64,000 nucleotides of DNA from a virus. Shown one piece after another: positions 1 to 40,221 of the stretch (its first letter is position 1; every line of letters starts with the position of its first letter). The stretch lies in the IMG/VR virus record IMGVR_UViG_3300046787_000327, positions 1 to 64,000 of that record; one strand, written 5' to 3'. Below the pieces are notes generated by a model. The model was not told where the DNA came from. It made no database searches and worked only from the letters and a program-made list of their open reading frames with translations. A program made the position numbers and the translations under genes.

Positions 1-64
1 GGGGGTGGGGTAGGGGGTAGCATGACCAGTCATAGGCTGGGGTACCTATGACCAGTCAAACCTA

Positions 65-262
65 CTACTCTGACTTTACTGCGATAGTACGATAGGTAGT
101 GCGGATAGAGCGAGGGTCTTTAACCTCAACTAGATAAGCCTCTGCACCTTCATAGTAGATAGGCTGAGGGTGCTTTTCTGCACTGATAATTTCACCTGTA
201 AGGGTGCGGGACTGATAAGTCTTACCTACTAGTAGGGACTCAATTGAATATAGATTAGCCAT
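65..262 (-). CDS. Small hypothetical early protein (65 aa)
   Basis: Start moved to ATG 262 (MANLYSIE), which follows AGAAAGAAGG RBS and a promoter at 294-316. Confidence 0.75.
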   Translation of the reverse strand: MANLYSIESLLVGKTYQSRTLTGEIISAEKHPQPIYYEGAEAYLVEVKDPRSIRTTYRTIAVKSE

Positions 263-293
263 AGGGACTACCTTCTTTCTGTTTATATATCTA

Positions 294-316
294 AGCCTAC
301 ACCATAAGGGCGACAA
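294..316 (-). promoter_or_regulatory. PafBC/RecA-NDp-type promoter (TTGTCGC-N10-TAGGCT)
   Basis: Motif and spacing match TGTCGG-N10-TAnnnT; lies upstream of ORF 262. Confidence 0.6.
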
Positions 317-353
317 ATACAAATCGAGAATCGGACATATAGGACATTTTGAA

Positions 354-369
354 TGTGATAAATATCATA
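354..369. promoter_or_regulatory. CRP/GlxR-like box TGTGA-N6-TCATA
   Basis: 9/10 match to TGTGA-N6-TCACA. Confidence 0.6.
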
Positions 370-428
370 GTGTGTCGACACGCCCGAGTGCGACGTGCCC
401 ACGCATATTTATGCAGAACTATAAATAA

Positions 429-611
429 TTATGCATCTTCTAATTCTGCATTGCTACGCATGTAGTCTTCAAAATCTAATAGACCTTGATCATACGCAAC
501 AGGGTCACACATCTTTAAAACTTGCGAAGGCTGAAATTTATAAATACCAATTTCAATTTCACCTTGCTCATCTAGTAAATCGTTATATAAATCTGTCCAT
601 GGATTATTCAT
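429..611 (-). CDS. Small acidic hypothetical protein
   Basis: ORF track; TAATG overlap with the upstream ORF. Confidence 0.75.
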   Translation of the reverse strand: MNNPWTDLYNDLLDEQGEIEIGIYKFQPSQVLKMCDPVAYDQGLLDFEDYMRSNAELEDA

Positions 612-784
612 TAGTTATCACTCCAATGCATTTTGATGTGTTGAATCTGTTCATATAAATCAGCGGTAGGTTCAGCCATGCCATATGGATTACCTTTATC
701 TTCAATTAAATCAAGAAGATTAGATAAAGCGGTTTCAAGAAGGACAACCTCATCAATGTTGCCTAGTAATTCAATTTTTTTCAT
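611..784 (-). CDS. Small hypothetical protein (57 aa, MKKIELLG...)
   Basis: Hand-translated; GAAAGG RBS; TAATG overlaps on both sides. Confidence 0.7.
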   Translation of the reverse strand: MKKIELLGNIDEVVLLETALSNLLDLIEDKGNPYGMAEPTADLYEQIQHIKMHWSDN

Positions 785-951
785 TAGTTGTTACCTTTCT
801 GATAAAGAAATCCCCATGCCTGTCGGCATAAATAAATGCTTTCGCAATTGTCACAACAGATAATTCCATTGTTGTTTAGTTCTAGGTCATAGATATCTAT
901 GCTAGTTGTTTTGTCTCCACATATGGAGCGGACATTTACATAGTGACTCAT
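784..951 (-). CDS. Small Cys-containing hypothetical protein (55 aa, MSHYVNVRSICG...CCDNC)
   Basis: Hand-translated; GAAAGGA RBS; TAATG overlaps. Confidence 0.7.
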   Translation of the reverse strand: MSHYVNVRSICGDKTTSIDIYDLELNNNGIICCDNCESIYLCRQAWGFLYQKGNN

Positions 952-1076
952 TATTTAAGTCCTTTCGTTCTTTTGATAATTCGCTTGTTTCCACAAGCCT
1001 TGCAAGTTAAGTGGAAAGTTTCTTTAAACCATCTTTCGCTCCACAATAGAGAGCCACAATTAGGGCAACCGTTCAT
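951..1076 (-). CDS. Small zinc-ribbon protein (41 aa, CPNC...CKAC)
   Basis: Hand-translated; AGGAGG RBS; two CxxC pairs. Confidence 0.7.
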   Translation of the reverse strand: MNGCPNCGSLLWSERWFKETFHLTCKACGNKRIIKRTKGLK

Positions 1077-1252
1077 TAGTTAGCCTCCTTTTCGTTAAGC
1101 ATTTTTTGAATATTGCGAACCTGCAATAACCAAGGGTTAGCGGCTACGATAGCCTCATGGCGCAACGCATTGCGCTTTTGTTGTTCAACGGCAAACGCCT
1201 TGAAATATTCGTGCGTGTTCTTGTCACGCATTTCTTGAGTTAAGTGAGTCAT
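1076..1252 (-). CDS. Small hypothetical protein (58 aa)
   Basis: ATG 1252 after GAAAGGGG RBS. Confidence 0.7.
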   Translation of the reverse strand: MTHLTQEMRDKNTHEYFKAFAVEQQKRNALRHEAIVAANPWLLQVRNIQKMLNEKEAN

Positions 1253-1307
1253 TTTGACCCCTTTCATTTTTAAAGATTTACTTTTTGTTCAACCTTGTAT
1301 AGATACA

Positions 1308-1329
1308 AGTCTAGCAGGGGGGTCTGACA
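1308..1329 (-). promoter_or_regulatory. PafBC-type promoter (TGTCAG-N10-TAGACT, extended TG)
   Basis: Motif and spacing; heads the 1252-429 operon. Confidence 0.6.
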
Positions 1330-1362
1330 TTTTGGAGGGTATAAATCGGACATTTTGGACTT

Positions 1363-1394
1363 TGTGAGGTAGAACACATGTGACCTACGCCACA
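1363..1394. promoter_or_regulatory. Two abutting CRP/GlxR-like boxes
   Basis: TGTGA-ggtaga-ACACA and TGTGA-cctacg-CCACA. Confidence 0.6.
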
Positions 1395-1462
1395 CGGGGG
1401 ACGTCCCGATTTAGTTGAAATTTCAAGCAGTTTTAAATCATGCTCAGGATCCCGCTGCAGGC

Positions 1463-1594
1463 CTAGTTTTGTTTTCGCAAATCGTTTTTAATTTCTTGCC
1501 AGTCTTCTTGTAGCATTGGAATCATCATTCTTACTAACTGAAACACTCCAATTGCTAAACCTAACTGCACTACTGTTGTAATTAGTCTATTCAC
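1463..1594 (-). CDS. Small membrane protein (43 aa)
   Basis: Hand-translated; GTGA overlap with the upstream ORF; hydrophobic N-terminal half. Confidence 0.55.
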   Translation of the reverse strand: MNRLITTVVQLGLAIGVFQLVRMMIPMLQEDWQEIKNDLRKQN

Positions 1595-1764
1595 TTTAAA
1601 CACTCCGCTCTAAACTTTTCGAAATCGAAACTTTGATTGTCACTAGAGAACATATCACCAAACTCATGAATTAAATCCTCGAATACATCTTTATCCATAT
1701 CCTCAACGAATCCGTTTAGAATATTTGCAACAGACACAAACGCTTTGCGTGTATAGGTAGCCAT
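1591..1764 (-). CDS. Small hypothetical protein (57 aa, MATYTRKAF...)
   Basis: Hand-translated; TAATG overlap. Confidence 0.7.
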   Translation of the reverse strand: MATYTRKAFVSVANILNGFVEDMDKDVFEDLIHEFGDMFSSDNQSFDFEKFRAECLK

Positions 1765-2021
1765 TATGCAACACCTACCAATTCTAGAAACATCTCAGTG
1801 CCACCCTCATTGATAAAGGCAACTTGCTTTTCGATTGAAGCCCATGACATATCTTCAAGGTCAGGCATGCACTCATCAATTGCACCCTTGTTCATTTCGA
1901 TGAAGCCTTCACCCATCATCATGATTTGTGGGAGGTAGCGATTTGTCTCCGCAACCTTTGAAACGAAATTGTAGCCCTTGTAAGTAAAGGGGAAGCGAGC
2001 AAACTTAATTGTTGAAGTCAT
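1764..2021 (-). CDS. Hypothetical protein (85 aa)
   Basis: ATG 2021 overlapping the upstream stop. Confidence 0.75.
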   Translation of the reverse strand: MTSTIKFARFPFTYKGYNFVSKVAETNRYLPQIMMMGEGFIEMNKGAIDECMPDLEDMSWASIEKQVAFINEGGTEMFLELVGVA

Positions 2022-2206
2022 TAGAGAACAGCCTTTCCACGAAGTGTACCTGAAATTGAGAGAGCGTCGCAAGACACTTTGAGAGCAACACCTACTGGCA
2101 GGCTATCTGCATAAGTAGAGATGAATTGAGCAACTGCACCCTTTGAAGGGAGAGCGATTGACTTTGTTGAACCGTTGAACGATTCGAGTTTTACAGTGTA
2201 GTTCAT
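2021..2206 (-). CDS. Hypothetical protein (61 aa)
   Basis: ATG 2206 after AAGAAAGGTGG RBS. Confidence 0.75.
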   Translation of the reverse strand: MNYTVKLESFNGSTKSIALPSKGAVAQFISTYADSLPVGVALKVSCDALSISGTLRGKAVL

Positions 2207-2241
2207 GAGAACCACCTTTCTTTTGTTAAGTTGATAAGACT

Positions 2242-2263
2242 ATCCTATCAGACTAGACCGACA
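2242..2263 (-). promoter_or_regulatory. PafBC-type promoter (TGTCGG-N10-TAGGAT)
   Basis: Exact consensus and spacing, extended TG. Confidence 0.7.
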
Positions 2264-2268
2264 AATTG

Positions 2269-2329
2269 GGCACTTATTCGCTTAGGCTCACTGTGATACT
2301 AGTCACATTTATTTGCTAAGGCTCATGCC
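2269..2329 (-). ncRNA. Structured leader RNA B with two UGAGC/CRAAUAA internal loops
   Basis: Stems GGCA/UGCC, CUUAG/CUAAG, UGUGA/UCACA; same loops as RNA A at 3559-3631. Confidence 0.7.
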
Positions 2330-2360
2330 TTTATTTATCTTTATTTAATTGTATAAGAGA

Positions 2361-2389
2361 ATACTACCAGAGAAATGTCAAAAAGTCAA
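2361..2389 (-). promoter_or_regulatory. Strong sigma-A-type promoter TTGACT-N17-TG-TAGTAT
   Basis: Same -35 and -10 hexamers as the promoters at 3398 and 3499. Confidence 0.8.
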
Positions 2390-2420
2390 GTTTAGACACG
2401 GACAATTCGGACATTATTTA

Positions 2421-2450
2421 TGTGTTTCGCATCACACGAACATCTGTTCG
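2421..2450. promoter_or_regulatory. CRP-like box (2421-2436) abutting a LexA SOS box CGAAC-ATCT-GTTCG (2437-2450)
   Basis: Perfect Gram-positive/actinobacterial LexA consensus. Confidence 0.7.
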
Positions 2451-2480
2451 AAAACGGGACGTCGCATTTTTGCAAGTTTT

Positions 2481-2576
2481 TTACTTGTCAAAAATTTTTA
2501 GCAACTCTTCACATTGTTCATCAGTTAGATGTGTTATGTCAATTGCTTTTTGAAATAGATCCGTGATTTCATTCAT
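2481..2576 (-). CDS. Small hypothetical peptide (31 aa)
   Basis: Hand-translated; GGAG RBS; TAATG overlap. Confidence 0.55.
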   Translation of the reverse strand: MNEITDLFQKAIDITHLTDEQCEELLKIFDK

Positions 2577-2731
2577 TAGTTTTTCTCCATTGTTTCAATA
2601 ATTTGTTTCAATTGGTTTTCGGTAAGTAGTGCAAACGCTGCACCCCACATTCCTGCATATCGGAATTGACCATATTTGTTTTCTGCAAGGTTAAGAATTT
2701 CATCTTGCATTTTTACTTTATCTTTATACAT
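2576..2731 (-). CDS. Small hypothetical protein (51 aa)
   Basis: Hand-translated; TAATG overlaps. Confidence 0.65.
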   Translation of the reverse strand: MYKDKVKMQDEILNLAENKYGQFRYAGMWGAAFALLTENQLKQIIETMEKN

Positions 2732-2907
2732 TAGTTATTCACTTTCCAATCTGACCACATAGATAAACGGTCTGAATCAAAATCCATCCAATAGGATTCG
2801 ATATTCTGCTCGCATGATTCGCAGAATGTGTATGCTACATCATTATAGAATGAGATAGCCTTTTTATTAGGGGTATGCTCAACGCATACGGTTGTTAGTG
2901 TAGTCAT
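2731..2907 (-). CDS. Small hypothetical protein (58 aa, CxxH...CxxC)
   Basis: Hand-translated; GAAAGGTGG RBS. Confidence 0.7.
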   Translation of the reverse strand: MTTLTTVCVEHTPNKKAISFYNDVAYTFCESCEQNIESYWMDFDSDRLSMWSDWKVNN

Positions 2908-3170
2908 TATTTACGACCACCTTTCTTAGTAGTACGGCAATACTTAGCGTATTTGATAAAGAGTTTTCTGTAACCACATGAATCACAGTAGCGATTTAAG
3001 TAAGGTTGTTTTACATTAGTAGCATGGGTATCTGTCCATGCTGTGTGCTTACATGTAGGGTCATTACCCGCTACATTGTAGTCATTGTAGTAGTAGGGAA
3101 CATGGCTCCATGAATTGTAGCCAGTAGGGATAACGCTATTAAGAGCGTTTATTGCGTTAGTGTTAGTCAT
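2907..3170 (-). CDS. Hypothetical protein with CxH/CxxC (87 aa)
   Basis: ORF track; GAAAGG RBS; promoter TGGACA-N17-TAGTAT at 3228-3256. Confidence 0.7.
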   Translation of the reverse strand: MTNTNAINALNSVIPTGYNSWSHVPYYYNDYNVAGNDPTCKHTAWTDTHATNVKQPYLNRYCDSCGYRKLFIKYAKYCRTTKKGGRK

Positions 3171-3326
3171 TTTGACCTAACCTTTCATTTTTCGTTAATA
3201 ACCTTTATTAACTTTCTTTATATGATAATACTAGCAGATAAAACCCATACTGTCCAGTATACCCATGAGTAGTCTCAATATATGGAGCGTGGGTATTGTG
3301 ATATAGACCACACACATAGGGGGTAG

Positions 3327-3347
3327 TTATCCACATAGTTATCCACA
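3327..3347 (+). promoter_or_regulatory. Two perfect tandem DnaA boxes (TTATCCACA)
   Basis: 3327-3335 and 3339-3347, at the divergence point of early transcription. Confidence 0.7.
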
Positions 3348-3397
3348 GGGCACGTCCCCATGTGGTACACATCACACCCGACACGCCGTGTATGGGC

Positions 3398-3426
3398 TTG
3401 ACTTTTGAGGGTATATATGTTAGTAT
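3398..3426 (+). promoter_or_regulatory. Strong promoter TTGACT-N17-TAGTAT
   Basis: Consensus spacing with extended TG; CRP-like box at 3361-3376. Confidence 0.8.
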
Positions 3427-3498
3427 TCTACTATAACAATTAAATAGAGCAATAAGGAATACCCCCTAAAATGTGATACGAAACACACCCCTAAATGC

Positions 3499-3527
3499 TT
3501 GACTTTTAGAGATATGTATGCTAGTAT
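3499..3527 (+). promoter_or_regulatory. Strong promoter TTGACT-N17-TAGTAT (tandem copy)
   Basis: Consensus spacing; CRP-like box at 3472-3487. Confidence 0.8.
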
Positions 3528-3558
3528 TATTACTATAAGAATTAAATAGCAAGGAAAT

Positions 3559-3631
3559 CCTAGTGAGCCTCTGAGCCTACCAAATAAGGTCGAAAGACAT
3601 GAGCGTAGCAAATAAGAGCAAATAACCTAGG
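3559..3631 (+). ncRNA. Structured leader RNA A with three UGAGC/CAAAUAA internal loops and a GAAA tetraloop
   Basis: Nested stems CCUAG/CUAGG, CUC/GAG, CUAC/GUAG, GUC-GAAA-GAC; non-coding and directly downstream of a promoter. Confidence 0.75.
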
Positions 3632-3683
3632 CAAGGAAAACAGTTAGCAAATTGCTAATAGTATTAAATGAAAGGAAGTTAAA

Positions 3684-3881
3684 ATGACTTCACTATATAA
3701 CCATATCGAGATTGGTGATACCATCTCATTCCCTACATCTATGAACCTTGTTAAGTCAGGTGTAGTAGAGTCACTACGAAAGTGGAATGGCACTGCTATG
3801 CAGGTGCGTTGCACTAATGGTGCTAAGTTTGAGATTAGTCGTTATGTAAATGACTATGTACTAACAGTAGAGGAGAACTAA
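3684..3881 (+). CDS. Small hypothetical protein (possibly SH3/KOW-like)
   Basis: GAAAGGAAG RBS. Confidence 0.75.
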   Translation: MTSLYNHIEIGDTISFPTSMNLVKSGVVESLRKWNGTAMQVRCTNGAKFEISRYVNDYVLTVEEN

Positions 3882-3883
3882 AC

Positions 3884-3976
3884 ATGAGTTTCCCTACTAT
3901 CCTAGTTATCTTGTCGGTACTATCTACTATACTTATCCTTATCCCTACAATGCTAGACAATTCTAGCGAATACTAA
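3884..3976 (+). CDS. Small membrane peptide (30 aa)
   Basis: Hand-translated; AGGAG RBS; single hydrophobic segment. Confidence 0.6.
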   Translation: MSFPTILVILSVLSTILILIPTMLDNSSEY

Positions 3977-4004
3977 GACCCCCTAAAGAAAAGAGAAAAT
4001 AAAT

Positions 4005-4202
4005 ATGACAACATGCAAAGTAATTAACTGTGATTCAACAGAACTAGTATATAGCGGTACTGATGCCTTTATGTTAGGCGGTATCCCTACTGAGACCTAT
4101 TGCTATAAGTGTGCTAATGCATACAATCAAATAAGCAACGGTATGGCTATCTACCTAGCAGACTATGTAGATAACACCCCTCTCTCTACTACATCTTGCT
4201 AA
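4005..4202 (+). CDS. Small Cys-rich hypothetical protein
   Basis: ORF track; CxxxxC...CxxC. Confidence 0.7.
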   Translation: MTTCKVINCDSTELVYSGTDAFMLGGIPTETYCYKCANAYNQISNGMAIYLADYVDNTPLSTTSC

Positions 4203-4211
4203 GGAGTCCTA

Positions 4212-4478
4212 TTGTTTGATTTTATTACTTCACCATTCGAGTGGTTTGCCAATATAGTACAGTACTCACTTATATTTATGGCTATTATTATAGTAGTCCT
4301 AACTATTGGTGCAGTAGTCGCTATCCCCATAGGGCTCAAGTTATTGGGGGTAGCATTCGCTAAGACTATTGTAGTAGAAACTAGTAAGATACTAAAAGAC
4401 CTACAAATAGATAAGATATCGCAAGATACAAAGCAACTTACTAACAATATACTAAGAGTAGTAGGAGATAACAGATGA
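4212..4478 (+). CDS. Small membrane protein
   Basis: AAGGAG RBS; TTG start; long hydrophobic stretch. Confidence 0.7.
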   Translation: MFDFITSPFEWFANIVQYSLIFMAIIIVVLTIGAVVAIPIGLKLLGVAFAKTIVVETSKILKDLQIDKISQDTKQLTNNILRVVGDNR

Positions 4479-4597
4479 TAGATTCAATGTATGCACACAC
4501 ATGTAGTGAATGCGGTGATACAGGGCTAGTATTTTTTAGCGATAAAAGTATCCATATTGATCCGTGTGCATGTCCTCCATCGAAGGTGGGCGTGTAG
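4475..4597 (+). CDS. Small zinc-finger-like peptide (40 aa, CSECGDTG...PCAC)
   Basis: Hand-translated; AGGAG RBS; ATGA overlap. Confidence 0.6.
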   Translation: MIDSMYAHTCSECGDTGLVFFSDKSIHIDPCACPPSKVGV

Positions 4598-4805
4598 TCA
4601 TTAGATTTTATGGGGGTGTAGTGTCTATTAGATTAGGCACTCACCACCTATAAAAGTGCACACTATATTTTTCTATTTGATTCTTTTATATCCTGTATCA
4701 TTCATCTGGTAAAAATATTCAGATTTTGGTCAAACCCAATTTTTATAATTTTTCAGATTTTGCCAGGGTATCAATCCTGATCCAACATCATGCTATAATA
4801 AATCT

Positions 4806-4898
4806 ATGACCGATAACCTATATACTGGAAACAACTGCTGTGCAGCATGCACATGCGAAGATCCACATCAATCAAAAAGACCACAGACAGAAGAATAA
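4806..4898 (+). CDS. Leaderless Cys-rich peptide (30 aa, CCAACTC)
   Basis: TGCTATAAT 4791-4799, 6 nt before the ATG. Confidence 0.55.
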   Translation: MTDNLYTGNNCCAACTCEDPHQSKRPQTEE

Positions 4899-4899
4899 C

Positions 4900-5085
4900 A
4901 TGGCTATCCTAGACAATTTTGAATCAGCCTGGGACGAAGAGTTTGTTTTTGAATCCAAGCCTATGCCTATTACTGACAATATGGGCAGAGAAGTGTTTTG
5001 GGAAGATATGGGTAGACCAGAATCCTTGGCTACAAAAATATTTTCAGAAACCATATGCGATAACTGCTCTACCAAGACATCCTAA
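4900..5085 (+). CDS. Small hypothetical protein (61 aa)
   Basis: Start reassigned to MAILDNF. Confidence 0.6.
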   Translation: MAILDNFESAWDEEFVFESKPMPITDNMGREVFWEDMGRPESLATKIFSETICDNCSTKTS

Positions 5086-5106
5086 TTTTGCGACGGTATA
5101 GAAAGC

Positions 5107-5310
5107 CTATGGCTCGATCTGATAAAGATCCCACATACGTATATCAATAAACCCTATTCGAGCAGAATCGGCTAACTCCTCATTATCTGCTTCAATGACA
5201 AGTACAACATCTGACTCAATATCAACTTTTGTTATAAAGTCAGTTTTAGCATTGGCCTGATACGCCTCTTGAACCTTTGATAGGATTGGTTTGTAATAAT
5301 ACTTAGGCAA
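5107..5310 (-). CDS. Hypothetical protein
   Basis: ORF track; operon context. Confidence 0.6.
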   Translation of the reverse strand: MPKYYYKPILSKVQEAYQANAKTDFITKVDIESDVVLVIEADNEELADSARIGFIDIRMWDLYQIEP

Positions 5311-5488
5311 TTATTCCAGCAGCCTTCATACGATCATACATGTTATCCACAATAAGGGTCAAAGTAGGTTGACTCTGAGCAATTTGAGACTCAGCGTCGG
5401 ATTCACTCATTCCTGACTTCAAACATAGATCTCTATTGTCTTCATTGATACTATTGAGCATTAATGCTAGGGCTTCTTGCTTTTCCAT
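5303..5488 (-). CDS. Hypothetical protein (61 aa)
   Basis: Start reassigned to MEKQEAL. Confidence 0.65.
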   Translation of the reverse strand: MEKQEALALMLNSINEDNRDLCLKSGMSESDAESQIAQSQPTLTLIVDNMYDRMKAAGIIA

Positions 5489-5490
5489 TT

Positions 5491-5685
5491 TTACCACTTT
5501 CCGATAGGACACTCTGCTTGTTTGAGTGTAGATTTTAACTTCATAAAACAACCACATTTTGTGCACTTCATAAGGCTTTTACGAAATGCTGGACATTCAT
5601 TGCAAATGGCGAGTCTTTTCTCAATTAGTTCTTTATCTGACCTAGGCTGGTTAGGATCAAATAAGTCACTAAACTTTACTTCCAT
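5491..5685 (-). CDS. DUF6171-like Cys-rich metal-binding protein
   Basis: RLxICxxCP...CxxCGCFM...CPxGKW; paralog at 12586. Confidence 0.7.
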   Translation of the reverse strand: MEVKFSDLFDPNQPRSDKELIEKRLAICNECPAFRKSLMKCTKCGCFMKLKSTLKQAECPIGKW

Positions 5686-6446
5686 TCAATCTCCTCATTA
5701 TACGTTACAGAGTATTCTCCTGTAAAGATCTCTGCATATGAAATTATATCAGACATGTAACGCTTCACCGTATTTACCCCGACTTTATCAGACATATACT
5801 TTTTGCCGTCGGCTAGAGGCTTGTGGATAAGTCCTTCTTTTTCAAAAGCATCATTTAGGGTTTGGATATATCTTTCCTTGCCAAATCTTTTCGATGCAAA
5901 TTCTTGTCGAAGGTATTTTCCACGGATCTCATCATCGGCTTTTTGTATTTCATCTGTATTCCAGATAACATAGGAAACAGCATCATGTTCCATCCGCTTA
6001 GACCAATTTCGCATATTGTCTCCGTACTTCTCCATGTTTCGGAGAGTAGAGTCGGAGAAAGCCATGCGTATTTTGTCATCAATGGATGTGGGCACCTCTG
6101 TTGCGAACGAAATTAAAAACGTCGTAGCGTATGGAAACTTTTCGTAATACTTGTCGACCTCATAGTGATGATTTGGATTAAATGATCTCTCTGCTGCGCC
6201 GTCGCTTAAAAGCCTCATATGATTTCCAATCGACACATAGTCCGAAGTATTCATATCTATATCGACGAAAAGACACTCTTTCGGATCGACCCCATCGGCG
6301 AGGCATAAAAGATTTTTATCATAAGTACCAACTACTGTTGAGCCATTGTAACGATTGAGTAACGCTGCCGACATAAAACCATCCATATCAGGGGAAATGA
6401 TCAATTTGTCCGAATAGGACAATGTGTCCAGTATGTCTGTTTTCAT
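5676..6446 (-). CDS. DHH-like phosphoesterase
   Basis: SPDMDG motif I, FVD motif II, GNH in place of DHH. Confidence 0.5.
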   Translation of the reverse strand: MKTDILDTLSYSDKLIISPDMDGFMSAALLNRYNGSTVVGTYDKNLLCLADGVDPKECLFVDIDMNTSDYVSIGNHMRLLSDGAAERSFNPNHHYEVDKYYEKFPYATTFLISFATEVPTSIDDKIRMAFSDSTLRNMEKYGDNMRNWSKRMEHDAVSYVIWNTDEIQKADDEIRGKYLRQEFASKRFGKERYIQTLNDAFEKEGLIHKPLADGKKYMSDKVGVNTVKRYMSDIISYAEIFTGEYSVTYNEEIEWK

Positions 6447-6761: not shown

Positions 6762-6965
6762 ACTTCTGGTCTTTGATATATATAATTTATATTTAATATA
6801 AAAACCCTTTAGAGATAGTTTTCTTTTCTTTATATATTTAAAGTATACACCATCCAAACACTTGATGCTTTAGTACAAACTATAATAAATCGGACATTTA
6901 GGATTGTAACAATCTGATAACTTTTAAATATATGTCCGTTTTGTACTGATATGATATAATTTATA

Positions 6966-38611: not shown

Positions 38612-40221
38612 TGTCTGAAGATATTGAGTATAGAATCCCAGCAAGAATTGATGATCTTCCTGAGATTGATGACACATTTCAGAAGCAAGATCCTTTTAAT
38701 AAAACATGGGATGAACTCAAGTCTTTAGAAGGTTTAGAGAATAACTTTAAGCGTCGTGCTACTCGTATGTCTAAAGTAGATGCACCACAGTCTTACATTG
38801 ATTCTGCAAGAGCAGAGAGCACTGGTATCGGCGGGGCAAAGTCAAAGGAAATTAATCCAGGACTTATTTACCGTAATGGCTATGGACTCTTTGATGTAAT
38901 TACACCACCATGGAATCTATATGAACTAGCAAACTACTACGACACATCTTTTGCCAACCACGCATCTATTGATGCTAAGGTAGAAAACATCGTTGGCCTT
39001 GGCTATGACTTTGAGGTGTCAGCACGGACAATGCTAAAGTTAGAATCCTCTACAGATCCTGATGCAGTTGGCAGAGCAAGAAAAAGAATTGAAAGAGCAA
39101 AGATTGAAGTTCGTGATTGGCTAGAGTCTCTCAATGATGAGGATTCTTTTACTGCTTCCATGGAAAAGGTTTTTACAGACCTTCAGGCAACTGGAAATGG
39201 ATACCTTGAAATTGGTAGAACAATTAAGGGCGAGATTGGATATGTTGGTCATATTCCAGCAACTACAATTCGTGTTCGTCGTTTGCGTGATGGCTTTGTT
39301 CAGGTCATTGGAAACAAGGTTGTTTACTTCCGTAATTTTGGGGGAAAGAATCAGAATCCACTTGGAACAGATCCAAGACCAAATGAGATCATCCACTTTA
39401 AGTCATACTCACCACTAAACACATTCTACGGTGTACCTGACATTATTTCAGCAATTAACTCACTATACGGTGATGCACTTGCTTCACAATACAACATTGA
39501 TTATTTTAGCAACAAGGCTGTCCCAAGATATGTTGTAACTCTTAAGGGTGCAAAGTTATCACCAGAGGCAGAAGACAAGATGTTTAGATTTTTGCAGACA
39601 GGTCTTAAGGGGCAGAATCACAGAACACTTTACATCCCACTCCCTGGAGATTCTGATACCAACAAAGTAGACTTTAATATGCAACCTGTTGAAAACGGAA
39701 TCCAGGAAGGCTCATTCAAGGAGTACCGTAAGCAGAACCGTGATGACATTCTTGTTGCACATCAGGTTCCACTTTCAAAACTTGGTGGAGGAGATTCGTC
39801 TGCAATCGCTGCAGCACTTGCACAGGATCGTACTTTTAAGGAGCAGGTTGCAAGACCAGCACAAGACAAACTTAACAAGATGATCAATAAGATCATTCGT
39901 GAAAAGACAGACATCTTAGATTTTAAGTTTAACGAACTCACCCTAACAGATGAGATTGCACAGTCTCAAATTCTTGAGCGTTATGTTAAGAATCAGATCA
40001 TGGTTCCTAATGAAGCAAGAGTTATTCTTGGAATGCCACAGCGTGACGGTGGAGATAAGCCAGTCGAAGCAAAGCCAGCAGGAGAAAATAATCCTGCAGA
40101 CCGTGCAAGAGATGGCGAAAGAGTAAATAATAATTCAGATAGTTCATCAACAGTTGCAGGTCGTAACCCAAAGGGTGAAGGCCGTAAGTTTGACGACTTG
40201 TCTGAAATGTCCGAATTGTAA
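38611..40221 (+). CDS. Portal protein
   Basis: TGNGYLE, EIIHF, YGVP, F.N.A.P, NEAR motifs. Confidence 0.92.
   Translation: MSEDIEYRIPARIDDLPEIDDTFQKQDPFNKTWDELKSLEGLENNFKRRATRMSKVDAPQSYIDSARAESTGIGGAKSKEINPGLIYRNGYGLFDVITPPWNLYELANYYDTSFANHASIDAKVENIVGLGYDFEVSARTMLKLESSTDPDAVGRARKRIERAKIEVRDWLESLNDEDSFTASMEKVFTDLQATGNGYLEIGRTIKGEIGYVGHIPATTIRVRRLRDGFVQVIGNKVVYFRNFGGKNQNPLGTDPRPNEIIHFKSYSPLNTFYGVPDIISAINSLYGDALASQYNIDYFSNKAVPRYVVTLKGAKLSPEAEDKMFRFLQTGLKGQNHRTLYIPLPGDSDTNKVDFNMQPVENGIQEGSFKEYRKQNRDDILVAHQVPLSKLGGGDSSAIAAALAQDRTFKEQVARPAQDKLNKMINKIIREKTDILDFKFNELTLTDEIAQSQILERYVKNQIMVPNEARVILGMPQRDGGDKPVEAKPAGENNPADRARDGERVNNNSDSSSTVAGRNPKGEGRKFDDLSEMSEL

Follow-up and report, generated by a model that had tools for sequence, protein, structure and literature searches.

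Whose proteins read the spacers between the first genes of a phage, those of the host or its own? We address this question for the IMG/VR virus record IMGVR_UViG_3300046787_000327 (G000; 112,951 bp, guanine plus cytosine (G+C) content ~39%), of which the first 64 kb (positions 1 to 64,000) are referred to as the window. The record ends overlap by exactly 127 bp, and the record thus stands for a circular molecule of 112,824 bp. Small minus-strand genes lie in tight operons from 3170 down to 65, and their leftward arm extends over ~12 kb, from 3170 to 1 and beyond the record junction as far as about 104.3 kb. The arm comprises about 14 modules with their spacers, and four of these spacers are considered here: 263-428, 1256-1462, 2207-2480 and 3171-3683, the last being the divergent region between the leftward genes and the first rightward genes, which start from 3684. 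That the arm is early we infer from the size and position of its genes and from the divergent promoters. The original prediction described the four spacers as a mosaic of host regulator operators, by which the phage would either sense cyclic AMP (cAMP), DNA damage and cell-cycle state of its host or use its replicating DNA as a decoy. This observation proved to be largely real and is confirmed in part. With a probability of roughly 55% we regard the spacers as composite early promoters with CRP-, PafBC-, BldC- and DnaA-type words that would be read by the host, and the phage would probably tie its first genes to the state of the host in this way.

Operator-like words in four early spacers

The features of the four spacers are listed below in window positions; where no strand is given, none was assigned. 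Box centres refer to a transcription start assumed 7 nt after the -10 element, and the value for the box at 354-369 was computed by hand from coordinates.

294-315, minus strand: spacer 1 promoter of the loose PafBC type, TGTCGC-N10-TAGGCT, ~30 nt before the ATG at 262
333-345, minus strand: BldC-like 9-bp direct repeat, plus-strand GAATCGGAC and ATATAGGAC
354-369: CRP-type box with one mismatch, centred at -74.5 from the spacer 1 promoter
371-383: palindrome GTGTCGACAC with CGACACGC, a word enriched clade-wide
1308-1329, minus strand: spacer 2 promoter of the strict PafBC type, TGTCAGACCCCCCTGCTAGACT, nearly invariant in 7 orthologues
1348-1360, minus strand: BldC-like 9-bp direct repeat, plus-strand AAATCGGAC and ATTTTGGAC
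1363-1394: two abutting CRP-type boxes, centres at -69.5 and -85.5
1397-1406: GC palindrome GGGACGTCCC, with GACGTC restricted to early spacers
2242-2263, minus strand: spacer 3 downstream promoter of the strict PafBC type, TGTCGG-N10-TAGGAT
2292-2307: perfect CRP-type box, centre at -64.5, with direct repeats TGAGCCTWAGCRAATAAGT on both sides
2361-2389, minus strand: spacer 3 upstream canonical promoter, TTGACT-N17-TAGTAT with TGn
2399-2413, minus strand: TGTCCGAATTGTCCG, equal to a contiguous run of 15 out of the 20 bases of the optimised BldC whiI site
2421-2436: CRP-type box, centre at -74.5 from the canonical promoter
2437-2450: perfect Cheo/LexA-type box adjoining the CRP box, centre about -89.5 from the 2361-2389 promoter
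2455-2464: GC motif variant GGGACGTCGC
3228-3256, minus strand: spacer 4 leftward canonical promoter, TGGACA-N17-TAGTAT
3297-3312: CRP-type box, centre at -83.5 from the leftward promoter
3327-3347, plus strand: two perfect DnaA-type boxes in direct repeat TAGTTATCCACA
3348-3359: GC motif variant GGGCACGTCCCC
3361-3376: CRP-type box, centre at -64.5 from the first rightward promoter
3398-3426, plus strand: rightward canonical promoter 1, TTGACT-N17-TAGTAT
3472-3487: CRP-type box, centre at -54.5 from the second rightward promoter
3499-3527, plus strand: rightward canonical promoter 2, TTGACT-N17-TAGTAT

The word counts were compared with those in the four spacers after shuffling with dinucleotides preserved (2000 shuffles) and with those expected from the density of the motifs elsewhere in the genome. 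All eight CRP-like boxes named originally (≤1 mismatch to TGTGA-N6-TCACA) are present, starting at 354, 1363, 1379, 2292, 2421, 3297, 3361 and 3472; the shuffles gave a mean of 0.03 with 0/2000 reaching eight, and the rest-of-genome density predicts 0.04. Two of the three proposed PafBC-type promoters match the strict pattern TGTCRG-N10-TANNNT (shuffle mean 0.03, 1/2000 reaching two), while the third (TGTCGC, 294-315) holds only as a loose match (three loose matches versus 0.22). The single perfect LexA (Cheo) box CGAACATCTGTTCG at 2437-2450 was also found as claimed and is the sole copy in the 113-kb genome (mean 0.0005, 1/2000), as were the two perfect DnaA boxes TTATCCACA at 3327 and 3339 (mean 0.01, 0/2000) and the three BldC-like repeats GTCC-N5-GTCC with a 9-bp period at 333-345, 1348-1360 and 2400-2412. 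The word CGGACA occurs four times versus a mean of 0.28 (1/2000). Enrichment over shuffled spacers, which had been suggested as a check, thus holds for the CRP, strict PafBC, Cheo, TTATCCACA and CGGACA words. Two further claims lie within chance, namely the GACAC (WhiA-like) motifs (4 versus 1.7, 171/2000 shuffles, p about 0.09) and the TAC-N6-GTA pair (2 versus 0.48, 162/2000). The proposed dyads TTGAAATTTCAA, the paired TAC-N6-GTA and the imperfect TCTCA-N5-TGGAG do not recur in relatives beyond controls. As to the arrangement, on the transcribed minus strand the described order of GC motif, CRP box, GGACA repeat and promoter is found in spacers 1-3 and again in the modules at 109.0 and 110.7 kb, but spacer 4 has a different order.

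Several hundred IMG/VR contigs encode a related portal. In each of five full-length relatives with portals 78-89% identical, 8-14 CRP-type boxes and 6-10 promoters with a -26 and a -10 element are gathered in one arm of ~10 kb. The extended promoter core was found in >120 IMG/VR contigs, where a chance estimate yields only a few, and we analysed 80 of these loci (~708-710 kb, fetched by the promoter core). The five relatives and the 80 further loci have the same promoter grammar, with the words in the clade 25- to 200-fold enriched over permuted words, and the CRP, PafBC, BldC and DnaA word classes are kept in related phages, which was the second check suggested.

Two promoter classes and phased palindromes

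Promoters in the arm fall into two classes. The first is canonical, with TTGACT or TGGACA, 17 nt and TAGTAT preceded by TGn, and is present in four copies in the spacers. The second has no -35 element and consists of TGTC(A/G)G, 10 bases and TAnnnT, 30-45 nt before start codons with a ribosome-binding site; its core is AAATGTCAG at -31 to -23 plus the TAnnnT -10 element. Seven of the nine strict matches of the genome are located in the arm, and all seven are on the transcribed strand. From 497 unique promoters of the clade we obtained the consensus aAATGTCAGtCCCctcTGcTAtAAT, with no information upstream of -31 or at -35 and with a -10 element TAtAAT with TGn. A reading of the -26 word as a displaced -35 element was rejected, as the spacer to the -10 element would be 11 nt.

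The phage -26/-10 word, its spacing and the missing -35 element are the same as in the published PafBC motif, determined in vivo by chromatin immunoprecipitation as tGTCgg(N10)tA(N3)T without a -35 element (PMC8635444). There the -26 element takes the place of the -35 element, and PafBC forms a bridge between DNA and sigma region 4, a mode referred to as 'sigma adaptation' (PMC8635444). PafBC (RecA-NDp) promoters of mycobacteria and other Actinobacteria thus share with the phage class the 22-nt pattern TGTC(A/G)G-N10-TAnnnT, the lack of a -35 element, the SigA-type -10 element and a gene-proximal position (PMC8635444). In contrast, the phage copies belong to a lytic arm, number at least seven in 12 kb, depend on PafBC by prediction, and show a near-fixed A5, an AAA prefix, a C-rich spacer, an extended TGn -10 element and often an upstream CRP-type box.

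A second comparison concerns the middle promoters of phage T4, where MotA binds a box at -30 together with AsiA ('sigma appropriation') and the adaptor is encoded by T4 itself. Both promoter types have a normal -10 element, no -35 element and a word near -26 to -30, and for the phage studied here an adaptor on sigma region 4 is likewise proposed. Unlike in T4, no adaptor homologue was found in this phage, and its word matches the site of a host activator.

Two -10 elements of the arm, TAGTAT and TACAAT, lie ~7 nt before an ATG at G000 111,715-111,744 and ~107,640-107,670. Leaderless transcripts are common in actinobacteria, and these two promoters would give rise to such transcripts.

CRP-type boxes (≤1 mismatch) occur 19 times in the genome, 15 times in the arm. 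The eight boxes of the spacers are centred at -54.5, -64.5 (twice), -74.5 (twice), -83.5, -85.5 and -69.5. In the 80 loci, a CRP-type box lies between -140 and -30 in 290/502 unique -26/-10 promoters, and the centres peak at -64.5 (60), -74.5 (71) and -84.5/-85.5 (62) with minor peaks at -69.5 and -54.5. The boxes are spaced by whole helical turns and lie on one face of the helix. In the ~710 kb of these loci perfect boxes number 238, whereas permuted half-sites give a median of 1 and at most 6. A matrix of 378 unique clade sites reads TGTGAt.ta.aTCACA, and we found that the inner positions, which were not used in site selection, reproduce the GlxR consensus TGTGANNTANNTCACA (PMC4254451). Class I CRP and GlxR regulons have the same 16-bp palindrome, the same inner preferences and the same 10-bp steps on one face (PMC4254451), but the phage centres are at about -54.5, -64.5, -74.5 and -84.5, the partner is often a -35-less hybrid promoter, and boxes can abut in tandem. 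Orthologous promoters agree in the half-sites and in the -26/-10 core but not in the six bases at the centre of the box. The inner positions of the clade matrix also agree with the core of the Escherichia coli CRP site. Rex was considered as a reader of the palindrome; its operator has A at position 6 and T at position 11, and it was rejected on these preferences, with A6 in only 4% of the 378 sites. The TGAGCCTWAGCRAATAAGT repeats that flank the box at 2292-2307 (window 2269-2340) are kept in four relatives.

The 9-bp repeats and the DnaA-type words show a similar specificity. GTCC-N5-GTCC is present seven times in the genome, five times in arm spacers, and never with N4 or N6; in the clade 51 copies contrast with 2-8 at other gaps. 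Read on the opposite strand the units are (A/T)4NGGAC. BldC operators of Streptomyces consist of head-to-tail 9-bp units AATTxxxx(C), with TGTCCGAATTGTCCGAATTG as the whiI-opt site (PMC5859096), and the phage repeats meet this pattern with two head-to-tail 9-bp units, an AT-rich tetrad and a C-G pair four bases on (NGGAC) in three spacers. They differ in having only two units and in belonging to a host not known to bear BldC. The BldC-like ATGTCCG resembles the ATGTCAG of the -26 element, so one reader could serve both. Outside the arm, ATGTCCG(A/T)(A/T)TT is found at 6897 (-), 6932 (+) and 40,207 (+), within 6890-6945 and 40,200-40,220.

TTATCCACA occurs 13 times in the genome, compared to ~1.3 by a rough composition estimate, and 176 times versus 7 in the clade. 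As in bacterial, phage and plasmid origins, the perfect 9-mers are clustered and orientation-biased, with a second cluster beside an AT-rich stretch at ~103.4 kb; unlike in origins, the 3327-3347 pair lies between divergent promoters, and in relatives TTATCCACA adjoins a CRP-type box. Further copies are located at 5343 and 5822. At the far end of the arm an origin-like region (G000 103,380-104,310; L008 7380-8310) contains three TTATCCACA boxes, the AT-rich stretch of ~100 bp, a PafBC-type promoter at 103,889-103,910 and, by eye, four GGGGAA(A/G)A...CTTCGTAAT repeats, a fifth variant of which overlaps the leaderless promoter at ~107,660. Three relatives have similar TTATCCACA clusters at the same end of the arm.

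For the LexA-type word the reading is weak, because it is a single site away from a core promoter: at about -89.5 the box at 2437-2450 does not overlap one, as a repressing position would require. In ~710 kb of clade DNA 10 perfect Cheo boxes compare with a permuted median of 1, one control reaching 8. Two relatives have a Cheo box in the usual slot of the CRP box, once centred at -64.5 by our own count, and at locus L213 CGAACATCTGTTCG takes the place of the CRP box in the slot equivalent to 2292-2307. The word GCGTGTCG, which holds the reverse complement of GACAC, is found 291 times versus 5 in the clade. Its assignment to WhiA is not justified, because the motif published for WhiA consists of GACAC alone and varies in placement (PMC10243135).

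Besides this phage, only G001 and G002 among the five full-length relatives have the GC palindrome GGGACGTCCC. Although the genome as a whole is depleted of ACGT six-fold, all eight of its GACGTC hexamers are found in spacers of the arm, which suggests constraint. An interpretation of the GC palindrome as an intrinsic terminator was rejected, since 1395-1408 was flagged on the plus strand only, not on the transcribed strand.

Candidate readers of the spacers

No phage protein was found with a WYL/PafBC domain, a Crp HTH, a DnaA C-terminal domain or a sigma70 region 2. The best phage match to HTH_17 (BldC-like) reached 15 bits, which is below the Pfam cut-off, and among 29 early products no Pfam DNA-binding family was detected except one weak zinc ribbon. 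As no phage homologue of CRP, PafBC (WYL) or DnaA was found, host factors are the simplest readers. Host housekeeping RNA polymerase would read the core promoters, and a host dimer of the CRP family at TGTGAT-N4-ATCACA would activate from upstream with centres near -54.5 minus multiples of 10. The -35-less promoters would depend on a protein that adapts them to sigma region 4; the most likely candidate is host PafBC, which is switched on by single-stranded DNA (ssDNA). Transcription of the early arm would then depend on the cAMP state of the host and on a DNA-damage or ssDNA signal. The composite module would also include the (A/T)4NGGAC repeats, CGGCGTGTCG and GGGACGTCCC, with TTATCCACA in the divergent region. 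Judged by factor, the case for a host regulator is well founded with CRP and plausible with PafBC, DnaA and BldC; for LexA it is weak, and WhiA and the extra dyads have no support. With PafBC patchy in low-GC actinobacteria and binding predicted only, sensing of cAMP, DNA damage and the cell cycle is a suggestion that we infer from the words.

This patchiness emerged from 20 small actinobacterial genomes, in which the G+C content of the recA locus served as a proxy for genome G+C; genomes flagged as unpublished support none of our claims. Among the eight genomes with a recA locus ≤41% G+C, WYL genes were found in two, as a tandem pair in G027 and as two unlinked genes in G182. G027 (39% GC) encodes a tandem pafB-pafC pair with HTH_PafC, WYL and WCX domains and, upstream of recA, has TTGTCGCAG-N8-TATTAT ~45 nt from the start codon, which shows the grammar in a low-G+C genome too. 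Across the 20 genomes the regions upstream of recA contain Cheo boxes or PafBC-type motifs depending on lineage, with a Cheo box instead of the PafBC-type motif in other small low-GC genomes. In small low-GC genomes of actinobacteria TGTCRG-N10-TANNNT hardly exceeds its control, whether WYL genes are present or not, a result that is not decisive.

Several findings weigh against host factors as the readers. Six of these eight low-GC genomes are without WYL proteins, so the host could be PafBC-less. At position 5 of the -26 element A is nearly fixed, whereas the mycobacterial motif shows a g of weak conservation there, and the box centres are ~3 bp off the class I CRP positions of E. coli (-61.5, -71.5 and -82.5). 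Many modules are paralogues or orthologues, and the counts are thus not independent events. The nearest isolates, Streptomyces phages with a portal 47% identical, have neither the cluster of CRP boxes nor the -26 promoters. Canonical and -26-type promoters coexist with the canonical ones at the head of the arm, a cascade-like layout, and most early proteins, ~40 small ones of uncharacterised fold among them, are without a family match.

The last three findings would also fit readers encoded by the phage, and the absence of the feature from the Streptomyces relatives would make a clade-specific invention possible. In such a cascade an immediate-early adaptor made from the canonical promoters at 3228-3527 would act at the -26 element and a small dimeric phage protein would bind the palindromes, with the basic first leftward product with a CxxC pair (2907-3170) and the basic zinc ribbon (951-1076) as candidates. 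We consider this doubtful, as the -26 word, its spacing and the lack of a -35 element match the host PafBC motif exactly, and the palindrome matches CRP/GlxR even at unselected positions. The searches of the phage for WYL, Crp HTH and sigma domains were negative, with HTH_17 below cut-off, and four or five separate resemblances to host sites would have to be coincidence.

A role at the RNA level (leader structures or processing sites), or meaningless duplicated spacer DNA, is improbable. Transcripts from the 2361-2389 promoter would carry the box at 2292-2307 in their leader, with a conserved direct repeat on either side, and the modules are clearly paralogous; however, no match to known RNA families was found in Rfam for 1-6000 at E-values up to 0.1, orthologues share the half-sites but differ in the central six bases, and the phasing to the downstream -10 element of the DNA and the enrichment over permuted words both speak against such roles. 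Least probable is a decoy array that would titrate host CRP, PafBC, DnaA and LexA during phage replication and reprogram the host: 15 strong CRP-type sites and 13 TTATCCACA per genome would be multiplied by copy number, but the boxes are found only in promoter-proximal spacers at fixed whole-turn distances from the -10 element, a spacing with which direct control of transcription fits better, and the -26 words are strand-specific and always accompanied by a -10 element and a downstream gene, none of which a sponge needs. Of the two alternatives offered originally, the host-state reading with direct control, which the words that match host-regulator sites support in part, is thus favoured over the decoy.

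Within the host reading a stronger version can be formulated, which we hold tentatively and give less than even odds. An abundant clade of freshwater phages of actinobacteria, without an early-promoter specificity factor of its own, would borrow host PafBC as an obligatory sigma adaptor, ssDNA formed on infection would fire the arm, and the phased CRP-family activator would gate it; the upstream palindrome slot would be interchangeable, with a LexA-type box replacing the CRP box at -64.5 in some relatives. The parts are of known kinds (PafBC promoters, CRP activation, BldC repeats, DnaA boxes), while their combination as the grammar of a lytic phage arm is undescribed in the literature searched. 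If host PafBC and CRP do operate these promoters, the early switch of the phage would be the DNA-damage alarm of actinobacteria combined with their cAMP regulator, 'sigma adaptation' would extend from stress response to viral takeover, and a large group of uncultured lake phages would have a concrete, testable promoter grammar. As the consensus is near the mycobacterial motif, it is testable with available reagents from Mycobacterium smegmatis or Corynebacterium glutamicum, with no need for cultures of the natural host.

Probable host and further observations on the record

The portal and the capsid protease are 47% and about 54% identical, respectively, to those of Stanwilliamsviridae from Streptomyces. 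A close cultured relative was not found among 50,697 phage records by megablast and short-word blastn. The phage encodes a WhiB-like protein at 90,100-90,381, and WhiB is a marker of actinobacterial phages in lakes (PMC10914622). Judging from WhiB and the nearest isolates, the host is probably a low-GC freshwater actinobacterium. An attempt to assign the host through the phage WhiB was uninformative: the five matches in genome_contigs, the closest cellular ones (L096-L100), are on short contigs in metagenome-assembled genomes labelled Acidimicrobiaceae, Polynucleobacter, Saccharibacteria, Bifidobacterium and Arenimonas, and these contigs are most likely mis-binned phage contigs in unrelated bins. 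The original prediction had noted no integrase in the window, and none was found in the whole record either.

The record junction (the 127-bp overlap of window 1-127 and the record end) cuts an arm spacer, and gene 65-262 is served by a CRP box at 112,783 and a loose -26 promoter at 112,723, beyond the junction. The long terminal repeats of Stanwilliamsviridae are similar in size to the arm, and by analogy the ~12-kb arm might be a collapsed terminal repeat. A lone tRNA-Asp is located within the early arm (G000 107,768-107,842; L008 11769-11843), and 11 tRNA genes form a minus-strand array at G000 96,010-97,100 (L008 11-1101).

AGCT, CCGG and CGCG are wholly absent from the record (expected 402, 178 and 178), and ACGT (68 versus 402 expected) and GCGC (29 versus 178) are rare. 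Of the 64 six-base palindromes 19 are absent, and CTGCAG and TGCA are over-represented. Such extreme avoidance of palindromes probably serves to evade restriction. The 80 related loci are also poor in CCGG and CGCG, but not in AGCT.

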